From Candidatus Moraniibacteriota bacterium (lineage in GTDB: Bacteria > Patescibacteriota > Minisyncoccia > Moranbacterales > UBA1568), in contig JAGOBM010000005.1 in assembly GCA_017983435.1 (NCBI GenBank), positions 28,469 through 92,468 on the forward strand: a DNA stretch of 64,000 nucleotides, given 5' to 3'. Made by a program: the position numbers and the translations under genes. Under the pieces are notes generated by a model. That model ran no database searches and was not told the DNA's origin. It was given only the letters and a program-made list of their open reading frames with translations. Numbering within the stretch: the first letter of the stretch is position 1; each line of letters opens with the position of its first letter. Below, one piece after another: positions 6,434 through 51,408 of the stretch.

Positions 6434-6819
6434 CTTTTCTAAGACAGGTTGGATTGCCGCGCTTTGGAGCCTTTTTTGGCTTCTTTGTGAGGAAAGTCCG
6501 GACACTCCCCATCGCTTGCGATGGAAGGGTAATGGGTAACTCCCATACGCCGCGAGGCGCGAGGTGCGAACAGAAACGGCCGATTCCGAAAGGGATCGGA
6601 TATCCGGGTGCAAATCCGGATAAGCCTCTCTGGTAACAGGGAGGGTGAAACGGCTAAATCCTTACCTGAGTGCAAGGTCGAGCTCCCGTTCATATTGCAG
6701 CTGCGATTGAGTGGGAGAGAACCGCACGGATCTGGCTGGCAACAGTCAGGCAAGAGAAATGGCAATCGTCCCGCTTCGGCGGGATACAGAATCCGGCTTA
6801 TAGGCCTGTCTTAGAAAAG
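6434..6819 (+). ncRNA. rnpB: RNase P RNA (bacterial type A)
   Basis: Contains universally conserved GAGGAAAGTCCGGAC (P4), GGGTGAAACGG, and ACAGAATCCGGCTTATAGG (P4 3' strand, cf. E. coli ACAGAACCCGGCUUAUCGG); 15-bp P1 helix cttttctaagacagg / cctgtcttagaaaag closes the molecule; about 386 nt. Confidence 0.9.
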
Positions 6820-11442: not shown

Positions 11443-12609
11443 TTATTCTCCGATACCGAAGCGGCTGAGAAGTCTGGTTTTGATCTGGCTTCCGAAGAGG
11501 CGGAAGTTGGCGCTGGTGCGGTCAGTAATCATCGAGACGGTGAGTGTATCGATATCGATAGGGGCTTCGCTCCGGAGGGCAAGCTGGAAGGCGCTGCCGG
11601 AGTCGGAAGAGAGGCTGCTCTCGGGGATATCGCAGGTATAGCGAGTGGCGCTCCACCAGACGGCGGTCGGGAGACAGGAGAGATTGATAGCTCGGGCATC
11701 GAATGAGGCTTCGATCGGATGTGTCGATGTGATGAGGAAATCACGGTATTCAGGCGATGTGATGGGTCTGAGGCGCTGGCCGTGCACGAGGAGATAGACG
11801 CCGCTGTCCGTGTCGCGGAAGACAGTGCCCTCCGATTGGGCCGCGCCGTAGAGGAGGATACGCCCGCGCTCGTAGATACCGACTTCTTCTTCGTGGGCTG
11901 GAATGACATCTTCAAAACGATAGCCCATGGAGAGGAATATCCCTGGGTCGCCGAATGGTCGGATCTCGTGCTCGCTCGTGACGAGGAAGATGCCATCGGC
12001 GAATGAAATGAGGCTGCCGACTCGGAAGCCGATCCATTCGTCAGAGACAGGGAGTGTCTCTGCGAGGCTCGCAGCGAGCGGCACAGCGAAGGACGCTGGG
12101 TAGCGGGAGAGATAGGCGCGGGTCGAGACGAAGCGTTTGAGTGACCCTCCATCCTGAGCATAATAGATACCTTCCTGATCCTGGTAGAGCAAGGGGTGTT
12201 CGAAGGAGGCGACCGGAGTATCATCGATCGGCAGGAAGAACGAGCGGTAGGAACGGGAAATCGATGCCTTGAGGCGGGCAGCTTCCCCGGATTTCTGGCT
12301 GAGATCGAAGGAGATGCGGATGCGTGAGAAGGTACCTGGACTGTCGAAATTGCCGATAAGCGTCTGGTCGGCAGCGATCTTGCCGTTCTGGAGCGGTGTC
12401 TGATCGGAGAGTTGTCGCGGATCGAGAAAAGTATTCTTCGTCGATTGCGGGGTGCGGAAATTGAATCCAAACGGCAAGGTGGGAAAGATGATACGGAGCG
12501 CGAAGAAAAGAGCGAGAGCGAGACAGAGAATATAGAGGACGACGCGGCTTATGAGGTAGCAGCGTCTCTCTTGCGGAGGGATGGGACAGAATGGTTCGGC
12601 GAAGGACAT
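11443..12609 (-). CDS. Membrane-anchored hypothetical protein
   Basis: 388 aa, single N-terminal TM, no recognisable domain; member of the minus-strand operon. Confidence 0.5.
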   Translation of the reverse strand: MSFAEPFCPIPPQERRCYLISRVVLYILCLALALFFALRIIFPTLPFGFNFRTPQSTKNTFLDPRQLSDQTPLQNGKIAADQTLIGNFDSPGTFSRIRISFDLSQKSGEAARLKASISRSYRSFFLPIDDTPVASFEHPLLYQDQEGIYYAQDGGSLKRFVSTRAYLSRYPASFAVPLAASLAETLPVSDEWIGFRVGSLISFADGIFLVTSEHEIRPFGDPGIFLSMGYRFEDVIPAHEEEVGIYERGRILLYGAAQSEGTVFRDTDSGVYLLVHGQRLRPITSPEYRDFLITSTHPIEASFDARAINLSCLPTAVWWSATRYTCDIPESSLSSDSGSAFQLALRSEAPIDIDTLTVSMITDRTSANFRLFGSQIKTRLLSRFGIGE

Positions 12610-21648: not shown

Positions 21649-22758
21649 ATGAAGATAGCCCTGGTGCATGATTATCTGGTGCAGTACGGAGGAGCGGAGC
21701 GGGTGCTCGAGGCTTTTACCGAGCTTTATCCCTACGCGCCGATCTATACGCTCATCTACGATCCTGAGGCGATGCATGGTGTCTTCGTCGGCAAACGCAT
21801 CTATACGTCGTTCCTTCAGAAATCCCGGTTTGTGCGCAAGCATCACCGGCTTTTTCCGGCGCTCATGCCGCTCGCGATCGAGGAGTTCGATTTCTCGAAA
21901 TACGATGTCGTACTCTCTGATTCGTCGAGCTATGCCAAGGGCATCATCACGCGGCCTGAGACGCTCCATATCTCCTATATGCACACGCCGATGCGCTATG
22001 CTTGGGATGACTGCCAGAAGTACACGGAGGACTTCGGCTTCCCGCTCCTGGTGAAGAAGCTGGTGCCGTTCTTCATGAATCCGATCCGTCTCTGGGATCG
22101 GGTGAGTGCTGACCGAGTCGACCGCATCGTGGCCAATTCGAATTTCGTAGCGGCGCGCATCCGGAAGTACTATCGGAAGGAATCCGTCGTCATCCATCCG
22201 CCGGTCGATGTCGATCGCTTCGCGGTCGATCCGGTCGGGAAAGATTACTATCTCATGGTCGGCCGGCTCATCGCCTACAAGCGCCACGATATCGCCATCG
22301 AGGCATTCAACCAGCTCAATCTGCCGCTCAAGATCATCGGCCGCGGACCAGAGCTCGAGCGTCTCAGGCGGCTGGCTGGACCGACGATTGAATTCCTCGG
22401 CCGGGTCGACGAGGTGGAGCTGCCGAAATACTATGCCGAATGCCGCGGATTTGTGTTTCCTCAGGAGGAGGATTTTGGCATCGTGGCGATCGAGGCCTTG
22501 GCTTCGGGCCGCCCGCTGATCGCGTATCGGGGCGGCGATATCCCGGAACACATGGAGGAAGGGAAAATGGGAGTATTCTTCGATGAGCAGACGAGCGAAT
22601 CCGTTATCCAAGCGGTGAAGCGGTTCGAGAAGATGCATTTTGATCCGGCATACATCCGGTCGCGGGTGCTCCGCTTTGACAAAGCGCTGTTTAAGGCTAA
22701 GATGAAGGACTACATCGAAAGCGAGGTAGCGAAACATCTGGAACGCAGGCAATACTAA
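21649..22758 (+). CDS. Glycosyltransferase family 1 (GT4)
   Basis: MKIALVHDYLVQYGGAERV N-terminus, C-terminal E(x7)E-like region. Confidence 0.85.
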   Translation: MKIALVHDYLVQYGGAERVLEAFTELYPYAPIYTLIYDPEAMHGVFVGKRIYTSFLQKSRFVRKHHRLFPALMPLAIEEFDFSKYDVVLSDSSSYAKGIITRPETLHISYMHTPMRYAWDDCQKYTEDFGFPLLVKKLVPFFMNPIRLWDRVSADRVDRIVANSNFVAARIRKYYRKESVVIHPPVDVDRFAVDPVGKDYYLMVGRLIAYKRHDIAIEAFNQLNLPLKIIGRGPELERLRRLAGPTIEFLGRVDEVELPKYYAECRGFVFPQEEDFGIVAIEALASGRPLIAYRGGDIPEHMEEGKMGVFFDEQTSESVIQAVKRFEKMHFDPAYIRSRVLRFDKALFKAKMKDYIESEVAKHLERRQY

Positions 22759-38882: not shown

Positions 38883-39002
38883 AACAGTTCACAGTTAACA
38901 ATTAACAAAAAACAGTTGGCAAGAAGCGGGATTGGACAGATAGACATATTTTTTGTAGGATACCTCTTATCCATTGTTTGTCAGCTGAAAAGGTCGCAGA
39001 GT

Positions 39003-39023
39003 TCAGTTTCCGCCAGAGGCGGA
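39003..39023 (+). repeat. 21-bp direct repeat tcagtttccgccagaggcgga (copy 1, upstream of tRNA-Val); contains palindrome ccgccagaggcgg
   Basis: Identical 21-mer again at 39121-39141; inverted partial copy tccgcctctggcgga at 39219-39233. Confidence 0.8.
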
Positions 39024-39041
39024 TAAAGGTTAGAACAGAGA

Positions 39042-39115
39042 GGGCAACTAGCTCAGTTGGTTAGAGCACAGCATTCACATTGCTGGGGTCACTGGTTCGA
39101 ATCCAGTGTTGCCCA
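39042..39115 (+). tRNA. tRNA-Val (anticodon CAC)
   Basis: Manual cloverleaf: acceptor gggcaac/gttgccc, D-arm gctc-agttggttag-agc, anticodon stem cagca/tgctg with loop ttCACat, T-arm actgg-ttcgaat-ccagt; CCA not encoded. Confidence 0.85.
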
Positions 39116-39120
39116 CAACA

Positions 39121-39141
39121 TCAGTTTCCGCCAGAGGCGGA
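39121..39141 (+). repeat. 21-bp direct repeat copy 2, immediately downstream of tRNA-Val
   Basis: Exact match to 39003-39023. Confidence 0.8.
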
Positions 39142-39148
39142 CCCGCCT

Positions 39149-39253
39149 CGGGCGGGGGTTAGAGCACGGTATTCACACCTGCCCGACTCTGGAGGGTTGC
39201 TGGGGTCACTGGTTCCCTGTCCGCCTCTGGCGGAGAATCCAGTGTTGCCCACA
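39149..39253 (+). pseudogene. 5'-truncated degenerate tRNA-Val copy (D-loop to 3' end) with two insertions of about 20 nt
   Basis: ggttagagcac[g]g[t]attcaca + 20-nt insert + tgctggggtcactggtt + 21-nt insert (contains ccgcctctggcgg) + aatccagtgttgccca aligns to tRNA-Val positions 19-73; preceded by palindrome cccgcctcgggcggg. Confidence 0.6.
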
Positions 39254-39266
39254 GAAGTTTTCAATG

Positions 39267-39299
39267 AAGACGCTCCCGTTCCGGGGCGTCTTTGTTTGT
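39267..39299 (+). terminator. Intrinsic terminator (agacgctcccgttccggggcgtctttgtttg)
   Basis: GC stem followed by T-run, downstream of the tRNA-Val / pseudo-tRNA pair. Confidence 0.65.
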
Positions 39300-39373
39300 C
39301 TAATTGACAGGGGTGTCTGGATGGGGTACCGTATCTCCGTTACCAGTTCTTTTTTGAGAAGGGAGTATCCATC

Positions 39374-41953: not shown

Positions 41954-42008
41954 GAATACCTCCTATGGATTGGGAAGGGACAAAAAAGTGTTTGTATTTG
42001 CAATAGAG

Positions 42009-42081
42009 TGGGTGCGGAGGGGATCGAACCCACGACCGTTGGCTTAAAAGGCCACTGCTCTACCGACTGAGCTACGCACCC
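42009..42081 (-). tRNA. tRNA-Lys (anticodon UUU)
   Basis: Reverse complement folds as acceptor gggtgcg/cgcaccc, D-arm gctc-agtcggtag-agc, anticodon stem with loop cTTTTaa, T-arm gtggg-ttcgatc-ccctc (one U-U mismatch); CCA not encoded. Confidence 0.8.
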
Positions 42082-42137
42082 GAATGTGTTGGATCACTGA
42101 AATAACGATACTGACCGACTGCCAGCCCAAGGCTGGT

Positions 42138-42162
42138 CCGCCTCGGGCGGAAGCTACGCACC
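42138..42162 (-). repeat. Palindrome ccgcctcgggcgg abutting a 12-nt duplicate (agctacgcaccc) of the tRNA-Lys 5' end
   Basis: 12-mer identical to 42070-42081 (the tRNA 5' acceptor and D-stem start); the same palindrome occurs at 39145-39157 next to the truncated tRNA-Val copy. Confidence 0.7.
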
Positions 42163-42219
42163 CGTCTGTGTCAAAAACAAGAGAATTCTACCTGCTTTAG
42201 ACATATCCGTCAACAACAG

Positions 42220-49923: not shown

Positions 49924-51408
49924 ATGTCTTCATATCTCGTCAATACATTCCGTTCATCTTTCACGCCTGATATGCGTGCGTTTGCGGTGCTCTGTATCGC
50001 GTATGCGCTGTTCGGACTAGCTCGGATCGCGTTCGGATATGTGCCGGGCTTCCTGATTTTCTTGGCCCCGGTCTTCCTCATCGTGCCACTCGTCCGGCCC
50101 AAGGCCGGGCTGTGGGCGATCATCACTCTGACGATTCTGTTCGAGCGTTTCTTCACGTTGGAGCCGTTTCAGTTCGGTCGCTATGTGCTCAAGCTCTATC
50201 CGATCGATCTGGTCTTGCTTGGGGTGTTCGGAGGCGTGATCGCTTCTATCGTGTTTCGCCGGACAGCCGCGTATTTCGATCGGACGATCGGTATGCTCGG
50301 CGTATTCTTCGGTATCGCGAGCCTGTATCTCGCGGCGAGCTTCCTCGGGTTCGGTGATCGCGATCTCGCGGTCGCGGTGAGCACCTGGAAGAATTATGTC
50401 TTCTATGGACTCCTGGCCTGCGTGCTGCCGCAGCTCTTCATTTCGGAGCAAGATATCCGTCAGACGGTCCGGGTATTCTTGGTATCGGTGGCGGCCGCGC
50501 TCGTCTTCCTCCTGATCGGCATCCTCCGAGGCGGGGGGCTTTGGACGGAATTCACGCCGCTCTCGACCGGCGGGGTCCGGCTGCTCGCGTTTCCCCATGC
50601 TTTCTATTTCTCGATCGCTCTCCTCGCTCTCCTCGTGTCGAACGATTACTGGGATCCGTATAAGCGGAGCGGATTCGTCTGGATGCTGCTCGGATTGCTC
50701 GCATTCGGTATCCTGTCTTCGCTCATGCGGCATATCTGGATCGGCATGTTTGTGTCGCTCGCTTTCGCTTTTGTCTTCTTCATGCGGCACGAGGCTCGGC
50801 AGAAGATGGCGGCGCTCTCATTTGTCGCGCTCGGTATCGGGACGGCACTTTTCTCGGTAGCGCTCGTCTTCGCGACGCTCTTCCCGACGCTCGGTCCGAG
50901 CCAATCGATCCAGGCGATACAGGGGGTGGTAGCGGAGCGCTTGGTCTCTATCGGCAGCTCATCGGATACGAGTATTTCCTGGCGAGGGACGACGTGGAAG
51001 AGCGCGATCGATGAGATCGAGAAGCATCCGATCACCGGCGCCGGATTCGGCCGGCATGTCGCGGTGGAATCGGGCGACTATCATGACTTCGTCGAGGTGC
51101 GGAATATCCATAATTCTTGGCTGGCTGTATTCGTCCAGATGGGATTCATCGGCGGTCTCGCCTTCATTGGCGTTTTTGGAATCATCGCACTGTCTCTCAT
51201 TCGGCTGCCAGCCTATGGGACCTGGCAGTGTGCCTTCCGAGCGGCGCTGCTCGCTCTCCTCGCGTATGAGGCGCTCTTGATGCTCGCGCAGCCGTATCTC
51301 GAGACCAATCTGCTCAATGTCATCATCTGGATGACGATCGGATTCTCGATCGCACTCTGCCGGGTCACGCGGACAAATCCGACGATGGCCGCATCATCCG
51401 TCCGCTGA
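49924..51408 (+). CDS. O-antigen ligase / Wzy-type polymerase family membrane protein
   Basis: About 12 TM helices; Wzy_C-like periplasmic loop motif HNSWLAVFVQMGFIGGLAF typical of the O-antigen ligase (PF04932) family. Confidence 0.8.
   Translation: MSSYLVNTFRSSFTPDMRAFAVLCIAYALFGLARIAFGYVPGFLIFLAPVFLIVPLVRPKAGLWAIITLTILFERFFTLEPFQFGRYVLKLYPIDLVLLGVFGGVIASIVFRRTAAYFDRTIGMLGVFFGIASLYLAASFLGFGDRDLAVAVSTWKNYVFYGLLACVLPQLFISEQDIRQTVRVFLVSVAAALVFLLIGILRGGGLWTEFTPLSTGGVRLLAFPHAFYFSIALLALLVSNDYWDPYKRSGFVWMLLGLLAFGILSSLMRHIWIGMFVSLAFAFVFFMRHEARQKMAALSFVALGIGTALFSVALVFATLFPTLGPSQSIQAIQGVVAERLVSIGSSSDTSISWRGTTWKSAIDEIEKHPITGAGFGRHVAVESGDYHDFVEVRNIHNSWLAVFVQMGFIGGLAFIGVFGIIALSLIRLPAYGTWQCAFRAALLALLAYEALLMLAQPYLETNLLNVIIWMTIGFSIALCRVTRTNPTMAASSVR

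Follow-up and report, generated by a model that had tools for sequence, protein, structure and literature searches.

The 64,000-nt stretch of Candidatus Moraniibacteriota DNA analysed here (contig JAGOBM010000005.1; hereafter the window) carries, at both its tRNA-Lys and its tRNA-Val locus, a 30-nt double hairpin element (DHE) of the form TCCGCC-N3-GGCGGA followed by CC(C/A)GCC-N3-GGC(G/T)GG. Two 15-nt palindromes in inverted orientation make up the element and abut at both loci; each has a GC-rich stem of 6 bp and a loop of 3 nt. The element probably behaves as a tiny mobile insertion. The initial annotation of the region had noticed a 13-nt palindrome, ccgcctcgggcgg, beside both tRNA genes; one copy indeed lies at 42138-42150, whereas the copy at the Val locus is found at 39143-39155 and not at 39145-39157. 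We favour the interpretation, with a probability of about 0.6, that this palindrome is one arm of a mobile DHE linked to fragments of tRNA genes and to small cassettes encoding GIY-YIG nucleases. The earlier proposal, an inserting element with tRNA genes as its target, is therefore partly right: the palindromes do appear to be a hallmark of mobile DNA that has inserted in association with tRNA genes. They are, however, neither the terminus of an element nor the edge of the tRNA homology, as had been supposed. Each is half of a self-contained 30-nt insertion, the tRNA homology resumes beyond the double hairpin at both loci, and neither locus retains an element body or an enzyme gene, no GIY-YIG, integrase or transposase gene having been found at either of them.

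Within the window, these hairpins are confined to the two tRNA loci. The sequence CCGCC-N3-GGCGG occurs five times, every time at one of the two loci, against 0.17 occurrences expected, a distribution that is not random. The wider family YCMGCC-N3-GGCKGR counts six perfect hairpins in the window, which likewise all lie there, and the complete 30-nt pattern has two matches in the window even with three mismatches allowed (0.00 expected). With ~0.9% of the window lying within 100 nt of a tRNA, the chance of finding both DHEs in this fraction is, by our own arithmetic, p ~7e-5. The DHE of the Lys locus is predicted to fold into two 6-bp hairpins (-12.4 kcal/mol), and the element can alternatively refold into a single longer hairpin, like a repetitive extragenic palindromic (REP) doublet. 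An assembly artefact was considered and ruled out, the sequence of the region being identical across three independent assemblies and the site being common to relatives.

At the tRNA-Lys locus, the first 12 nt of the gene (agctacgcaccc on the plus strand) had been reported as duplicated. They are, at 42070-42081 and again at 42152-42163, the latter in place of 42151-42162; the hairpin noted next to the palindrome exists as well, at 42122-42136 and not at 42121-42135. Read along the minus strand, a predicted promoter leads into an old 5' fragment of the tRNA that holds the DHE, then into a 32-nt spacer and the intact tRNA (L-numbers here and below designate loci of other genomes):

42185..42213, minus strand: promoter-like site TTGACG-17-TAGAAT of the tRNA-Lys unit (10/12 match), kept in L004 and L008 (alignment A4)
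42152..42163, minus strand: promoter-proximal 5' fragment of tRNA-Lys, nt 1-12 (gggtgcgtagct), the duplicated 12-mer (repeat D8)
42122..42151, minus strand: 30-nt DHE, on the tRNA strand TCCGCCCGAGGCGGA CCAGCCTTGGGCTGG, comprising the palindrome at 42138-42150 and the neighbouring hairpin; missing in L004 and L008
42114..42121, minus strand: cagtcggt, nt 13-20 of tRNA-Lys in the vestigial fragment; joined at position 12, the flanks of the DHE give 18 nt of the intact tRNA
42082..42113, minus strand: 32-nt spacer, the last 8 nt of which (acacattc) are similar, by sequence comparison, to the acacagac that precedes the old fragment
42008..42081, minus strand: intact, uninterrupted tRNA-Lys(UUU) (ARAGORN; Rfam, 69.3 bits)

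The junction on this strand reads gggtgcgtagct, 30 nt, cagtcggt (AGCT|CAGT), with tRNA nt 1-12 on one side and 13-20 on the other, and the repeat reaches 8 nt into the 5' flank (18/20 overall, D8). The inserted 30-mer is identical to a copy within miaA of L048. Judging from the shared layout, the 32-nt spacer may occupy the place that is taken in other genomes (L179, L031, L057, L099) by a GIY-YIG open reading frame (ORF).

The tRNA-Val locus, on the plus strand, begins with a predicted promoter and a hairpin-bearing 5' fragment of a second tRNA-Val type, followed by the intact tRNA, a 4-nt spacer, a vestigial copy with the DHE (copy 2) and a terminator:

38933..38961, plus strand: promoter-like site TGGACA-17-TAGGAT, 5' of the tRNA-Val unit (9/12 in a consensus scan, a consensus match only)
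38992..39008, plus strand: 5' fragment, nt 1-17 (ggtcgcagagttcagtt), of a second tRNA-Val(CAC) type, 'A', matching the intact tRNA-Val of L011 (11673-11747)
39009..39023, plus strand: single family hairpin TCCGCCAGAGGCGGA, then taaa, in the D loop of the type-A fragment (DNA fold -6.3 kcal/mol, z -3.7)
39028-39036, plus strand: resumption of the type-A fragment in the sequence, ggttagaac
39042..39116, plus strand: intact, uninterrupted tRNA-Val(CAC) (ARAGORN; Rfam tRNA, 69.6 bits)
39121..39126, plus strand: tcagtt, 5' half of the D loop of vestigial copy 2; joined at position 17, the flanks of the insertion give 16 nt of the intact tRNA
39127..39156, plus strand: 30-nt DHE TCCGCCAGAGGCGGA CCCGCCTCGGGCGGG, including the palindrome at 39143-39155; the site is also occupied in L004 and L011
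39157..39177, plus strand: copy 2 from the D loop to 1 nt beyond the anticodon, 19/21 identical to 39059-39079 (repeat family D5)
39178..39196, plus strand: 19-nt insertion in the anticodon loop of copy 2, a degenerate copy of the unit at 39216-39234, with no stable fold; missing in L004
39197..39215, plus strand: copy 2 from the 3' strand of the anticodon stem to the T loop, 19/19 identical to 39080-39098 (repeat family D6)
39216..39234, plus strand: 19-nt insertion in the T loop of copy 2, cctg plus hairpin TCCGCCTCTGGCGGA (39220-39234); missing in L004
39235..39253, plus strand: copy 2 from the T loop to the 3' end, 19/19 identical to 39099-39117 (repeat family D7)
39269..39297, plus strand: terminator-like hairpin and T run closing the tRNA-Val unit 3' of the vestigial copy (scan match 39274-39286 plus CGTCTTTGTT), its position kept in L004

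Here, the DHE interrupts the D loop (tcagtt, 30 nt, ggttagagcac; AGTT|GGTTA). Copy 2, the 3' copy, is without its first ~11 nt and without the 5' acceptor strand, and its T-loop insertion (39216-39234) forms a 16-nt perfect inverted repeat with 39127-39142 (I7). Rfam detected no intron in 38900-39320 and recognizes intact tRNA genes only. That the old fragments persist at the two loci is probably owed to the transcription signals on them, the promoter in the case of Lys and of Val type A and the terminator in that of Val copy 2, and vestigial tRNA fragments would accumulate hairpin insertions because they are non-essential.

By its LysRS homologues, the organism is Moranbacteria-like (Patescibacteria, candidate phyla radiation). 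Gene order around the loci is conserved in relatives, with LysRS, SerRS, RRF, RseP and conserved hypothetical proteins as neighbours. Alignment of the tRNA loci of these relatives, the comparison that the initial annotation had suggested, revealed that the DHE and the other hairpin insertions differ in presence between L004, L008, L011 and the window. L004, with a LysRS 96% identical to that of the window, has the same Val DHE with one loop change and is without both 19-nt Val insertions; its Lys locus has no DHE, and the same old fragment is interrupted there after nt 9 by another hairpin, of 35 nt. There is no Lys fragment in L008 (LysRS 86%), where the promoter leads directly into the tRNA, and in L011 (LysRS 82%) both tRNA-Val types are intact, further hairpin-bearing copies are present and the Val DHE site is occupied. 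These differences imply that the loci turn over quickly by hairpin insertion into spare tRNA copies.

A second family of hairpin insertions, 32-36 nt in length, was seen in tRNA fragments (L011:11620-11655 and 11795-11830; L017:1836-1867; L004:14600-14640, minus strand; L008:13385-13440). One hairpin of this second family, cccgcccgaacgtaccgttcggtacgggcggg at ggtta|gagc, recurs without any change in two contigs, one from Moranbacteria and one labelled Bdellovibrionales. In a public assembly of the window's own locus, L003 (assembly SRR11088479), the contig ends at a point equivalent to window position 39078, inside tRNA-Val, consistent with disruption of assembly by tRNA repeats.

To place the DHE in a broader context, one genome per species was scanned for the exact pattern TCCGCCNNNGGCGGACCNGCCNNNGGCNGG, which yielded at least 120 loci with at least 128 copies; context statistics were computed on 124 distinct DHE contexts, and the counts in this and the next paragraph hold among the matches listed. 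The hosts comprise many Patescibacteria lineages, Omnitrophota, Planctomycetota, Kiritimatiellae, Lentisphaerota, a verrucomicrobial metagenome-assembled genome (MAG), proteobacterial MAGs and others. The variable stem position covaries, being C:G in 69 contexts, A:T in 51 and unpaired in 4. NNA predominates in loop 1 and TNN in loop 2, which makes the second hairpin an inversion of the first. The 5' flank has T at -2 in 108/122 cases and T at -1 in 93/122, and the logo of the 3' flank reads V-A/G.

As regards tRNA genes, 15 of the 128 copies (~12%) lie within 150 nt of an ARAGORN tRNA, a zone that we estimate, assuming ~45 tRNAs per Mb, at ~1.7% of a candidate phyla radiation (CPR) genome. 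The element is nevertheless not specific to tRNA genes, as the initial annotation would have had it, since 72 of the 124 distinct copies (58%) reside in ORFs of at least 200 aa, where they form 10-codon insertions; intergenic DNA carries the element as well. Most of these (50/72) are in the frame S-A-x-G-G-P-A-x-G-W or, in the opposite orientation, P-A-x-G-G-S-A-x-G-G. Pairs of orthologues show exact 10-residue gaps, one such pair being the window gene at 21649-22731 and its counterpart in L070, and in miaA, two lineages carry the insertion at the same site, as do two other lineages in the gene for the CCA-adding enzyme.

Several observations touch on these wider contexts. Within ORF 49924-51408 of the window, a perfect hairpin at 50094-50108 (CCGGCCCAAGGCCGG) resembles the hairpin CCAGCCCAAGGCTGG of the Lys locus and may represent a lone insertion of 15 nt (5 codons). 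In five Omnitrophota loci (L045, L056, L064, L061, L014), the DHE is centred in inverted arrays of 5-7-nt tandem repeats (gttacag..., cggtttt...), the regions forming a large composite palindrome. The verrucomicrobial MAG CBDCEW01 (L025, L032, L086, L090, L106, L125) contains at least 8 DHE copies inside a longer, nearly identical repeat. Carriage by phages was rejected, as a collection of 2.9 million viral contigs gave two matches to the DHE pattern only. Also rejected was the notion that the DHE always lands in the loop of an existing hairpin, which found weak support: 6/120 flanks had at least 6 bp of complementarity, versus ~1.5 expected, and none of these belonged to ORF copies.

Where the DHE does lie in tRNA sequence, its insertion is exact. 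Across all loci examined, there are 51 DHEs whose flanks, once joined, match at least 9 nt of an adjacent intact tRNA; all 51 junctions rejoin exactly, the element having entered without target duplication or loss, usually just 3' of TT, at tRNA positions 8, 12-14, 17-21, 28-29, 34-37 and 54-57. Forty of them are in 5' fragments upstream of the intact gene and 11 in 3' fragments downstream. The homology of the upstream fragments begins with nt 1 of the tRNA; outside tandem arrays, their 25-nt flanks show no relationship. Removal in silico of all family hairpins yielded only 2 extra full-length tRNAs among 155, both beside an intact twin, indicating that the carriers of the DHE are mostly truncated dead copies rather than interrupted functional genes. 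At L063:2480-2711, the same arrangement involves 5S rRNA, with a 5' fragment (...cccattccgaactcggaagtt), a DHE at 2509-2538 and the intact 5S gene at 2603-2711; the layout of dead fragment, DHE and intact gene is thus not limited to tRNAs.

A cognate recombinase or transposase elsewhere had been anticipated by the initial annotation. A candidate enzyme gene is indeed present at the same junction in many other genomes, but it encodes a small GIY-YIG nuclease and not an enzyme of either of those kinds. The small ORF between fragment and tRNA in L042, L127, L099 and L120 matches the Pfam family GIY-YIG (PF01541), and a local profile search identified 15 GIY-YIG ORFs in 835 kb of DHE-selected loci, 11 of them within 100 nt of a DHE, where our arithmetic gives an expectation of ~1. 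The cassettes share a layout: tRNA from nt 1 to a point X, the DHE, 5-12 more tRNA nt, ~10-25 nt to the ATG, an ORF of ~85 aa, 0-30 nt and the complete tRNA. The 3' mirror image of this layout occurs too. The tRNA fragment ends 5-25 nt past the DHE, where the GIY-YIG ORF begins. In L179, the DHE lies at nt 12 of tRNA-Lys, the same position as in the window, and the GIY-YIG ORF is present.

The link also holds when approached from the nuclease. Among 80 metagenome loci that contain relatives of four GIY-YIG cassette proteins and were chosen irrespective of hairpins, a family hairpin occurs within 120 nt upstream in 56 and on either side in 64; a tRNA lies within 400 nt in 47 of the 80, nearly always just downstream and on the same strand. 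Four of the apparently hairpin-less exceptions, on inspection, carry long-loop double hairpins with the same stems. Long-loop versions were seen at L191:1400-1500, L165, L175 and L141, in which TCCGCC/GGCGGA and CCCGCC/GGCGGG stems enclose loops of 6-17 nt at the same place in the tRNA 5' fragment. The cassette proteins (~85 aa) amount to a bare GIY-YIG catalytic domain of the UPF0213/Slx1 type, devoid of a DNA-binding extension; they are nearest to UPF0213 structures (1zg2, 1ywl), then to the structure-specific nuclease SLX1, and show only weak matches to homing-endonuclease families.

Individual cassettes display further features. In tRNA-Lys(UUU) cassettes (L187:1482-1500, L194, L198, L190), the tRNA piece that follows the DHE reads AAGGAGAAGG and lies 8-13 nt before the GIY-YIG start codon, and this anticodon-stem strand may double as a ribosome-binding site for the ORF. 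The intact tRNA beside the cassette is bracketed at L198:1560-1690, L212 and L196 by a mutually complementary leader and trailer of 11-13 nt. A group I intron (Rfam RF00028) adjoins the GIY-YIG cassette at L120:4856-5087 and L049:6736-7063, within the adjacent tRNA gene as read by eye; if this reading of the tRNA holds, the two loci would each combine two kinds of selfish insertion. Elsewhere in the window, a bacterial RNase P RNA of class A was located at 6441-6816 (134.8 bits), and the cumulative GC skew climbs over nearly the whole window.

On the interpretation favoured here, a cassette would carry a replacement piece of tRNA and integrate by homology in conserved tRNA sequence, either through homing and break repair or through a Campbell-type single crossover, and the DHE would mark the break or insertion point in the discarded tRNA piece. 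A replacement segment in the cassette is suggested because the repeat spans from nt 1 to the DHE, the flanks are unrelated and the ORF is squeezed against the complete tRNA. The two window loci would then be ORF-less relics of cassette events, and the same would apply to roughly half of those DHEs that are linked to tRNAs in the DHE-selected loci. Recognition or mobilization of the DHE most likely falls to the GIY-YIG nuclease, although the step by which the nuclease itself moves the element is the weakest in the scheme. More tentatively, and with a good deal of doubt, the DHE and the ~85-aa Slx1/UPF0213-like nuclease might constitute an undescribed two-part selfish system. The nuclease would cut or recognize the hairpin pair; the cassette would colonize tRNA genes (and in one case a 5S gene) across phyla, using RNA-gene sequence as a homology arm and rebuilding the split gene; and the hairpin pair by itself would spread, as a mobile unit smaller than any other known from bacteria, and would leave 10-residue S-A-x-G-G-P-A-x-G-W loops in housekeeping proteins.

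Several points weigh against this interpretation. No GIY-YIG gene was detected by the local profile search in the window or in L001-L011, including the loci of the four relatives, and because of this the cassette link at the two window loci rests on analogy of layout. A homing nuclease should re-cut the intact target that it regenerates, and the intact tRNA-Val keeps AGTT|GG. The left homology arms, at 8-12 nt, are very short for recombination, and the solo copies in ORFs have no flanking homology and therefore need a separate insertion chemistry, not homologous repair. The enzymatic activity of the cassette, its excision and any circular form are putative. Finally, the phylum labels are those of the MAG records and may include mis-binned contigs, and some of the DHE matches in genomes of 67-68% GC are probably due to chance.

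The alternative that fares best, unlikely as we consider it, takes the DHE for a miniature element like REPs or palindrome-associated transposable elements (PATEs), moved in trans by a single-strand HUH (Y1) transposase of the IS200/IS605 or RAYT type; the proximity of GIY-YIG genes would be secondary, both accumulating in dead tRNA fragments. Hairpin-based, precise insertion without target duplication, the conserved short 5' flank TT and the refolding as one longer hairpin like a REP doublet are all as this explanation would have them, and one IS200-like ORF lies 2 kb from the DHE in L125. Yet searches of 1.29 Mb with approximate queries returned three Y1-like matches, none adjoining a DHE, and only one weak RAYT match (E 0.003), again not beside a DHE. 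The DHE bears no GTAG or CGTC tag, and its 30 nt are far below known PATE sizes. Nor would coincidence predict that the fragment end always falls at the start of the GIY-YIG ORF, 5-25 nt past the DHE.

We strongly disfavour, as highly improbable, the proposal that the hairpins are host-beneficial structures evolved in place, such as signals for RNA processing or stability, terminators or protein-binding sites. Covariation of the stems, the location of the hairpins inside tRNA transcription units, between promoter and terminator, and retention of the Val-locus DHE in relatives down to 82% LysRS identity could all reflect such a function, but evolution in place would hardly produce near-identical 30-mers as exact 10-aa insertions in unrelated ORFs of many phyla, flanks that rejoin exactly into tRNA sequence, or presence and absence that vary between near-identical relatives. 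As to terminators, no T run directly follows either window DHE on its 3' side, as would be expected of an intrinsic one.

Still less probable is an origin of the partial tRNA repeats as attachment-site (att) remnants of a deleted integrase-type island or prophage. Partial tRNA duplication is the classic, well-established signature of integrases, but no integrase is encoded nearby: the neighbours are housekeeping or conserved hypothetical genes, syntenic in relatives, and a search for a recombinase beside the repeated tRNA segments, with Pfam on the neighbouring genes, gave housekeeping families only. Moreover, the duplicated pieces are mostly 5' parts (40/51), the copies lie 4-300 nt apart and the gene, where present, is that of the GIY-YIG protein. 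Least credible of all are intron-like insertions removed from the RNA of functional tRNAs, for although D, anticodon and T loops harbour the insertions, one Val insertion lies 1 nt 3' of the anticodon and Patescibacteria do carry group I introns in tRNA genes, hairpin deletion restores only the two tRNAs with intact twins mentioned above, Val copy 2 has no 5' acceptor strand, the Lys fragment comprises only 20 nt of tRNA, and Rfam sees the intact genes alone.

If the mobile-element interpretation is correct, a 30-base element with almost invariant stems is spreading, or once spread, among Patescibacteria, Omnitrophota, Planctomycetota and other bacteria with small genomes, which would place it among the smallest mobile units known in bacteria. 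It would reshape tRNA loci and add 10-residue loops to essential proteins (MiaA, the CCA-adding enzyme, DnaJ), and the abundant orphan GIY-YIG proteins of the UPF0213 type would gain a concrete, testable role. There would be practical consequences, too: DHE-bearing tRNA fragments and duplicated ends would confuse tRNA callers and break assemblies, and in-frame DHEs would create spurious 'lineage-specific' loops in protein alignments. We found no published description of the DHE or of GIY-YIG/tRNA-fragment cassettes in these phyla in the full-text literature, outside which most subscription journals lie, so that an earlier description is possible; a recent survey of tRNA introns in Patescibacteria makes no mention of such hairpins.

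Comparison with known systems reveals partial likenesses to several of them. Like REPs and REPINs, DHEs are short, dispersed, GC-rich palindromes in inverted doublets with covarying stems, and they fall within the 20-40 bp size of the imperfect REP palindromes. The definition of a REP includes a conserved unpaired GTAG or CGTC tag at one end, which the DHE does not have; furthermore, most DHE copies are intragenic and in frame, whereas REPs are extragenic, no RAYT or Y1 gene adjoined a DHE in the 1.29 Mb searched with those approximate queries, and the same DHE stems recur in genomes labelled as many phyla, versus one REP type per species. Insertion of IS200/IS605-type elements is hairpin-based and occurs without target duplication next to a short conserved sequence, and the DHE resembles their miniature derivatives in inserting without target duplication 3' of such a sequence (TT).

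Mitochondria offer another likeness. Double-hairpin elements were reportedly described from Allomyces mitochondria by Paquin and colleagues in 2000, and both these and the GC clusters of yeast mitochondria are, like the DHE, tiny GC-rich two-hairpin or palindromic units of sporadic occurrence, polymorphic for presence and absence, that insert into intergenic DNA, RNA genes and coding regions. Unlike the DHE, they are organellar and without a linked nuclease gene, they bear no sequence relationship to it, and the flanking direct repeats of the yeast cluster GC42 are not seen in the DHE. Rickettsia palindromic elements (RPEs), of ~100-150 bp and restricted to one genus, lie in frame in protein and RNA genes and add peptide segments. 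The DHE is likewise a palindromic repeat found in frame in protein-coding genes and also in RNA genes, but it measures 30 bp, is spread over many phyla and shows a link with GIY-YIG genes and tRNA fragments.

In tRNA-targeting integrase islands and prophages, as in the layout proposed here, the inserted DNA brings a tRNA piece that restores the gene, and a displaced partial copy is left behind. The present units differ from them in that they have no integrase, span 80-400 bp, mostly duplicate the 5' part of the tRNA and have the crossover point marked by a hairpin insertion. SegB of phage T4 is a GIY-YIG homing nuclease encoded in a tRNA gene cluster; it recognizes the TpsiC stem-loop motif of tRNA genes and spreads its own gene together with neighbouring tRNA genes via break repair. 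Unlike SegB, the cassettes are chromosomal (Patescibacteria, Omnitrophota, others) and not carried by a phage, encode a bare domain of ~85 aa, and regularly include a partial tRNA duplication and a double hairpin, and the window has no such ORF. What they share with SegB is a small GIY-YIG ORF among tRNA genes, here 0-30 nt upstream of an intact tRNA, and by this analogy T4 SegB would be the nearest precedent for a cassette origin.

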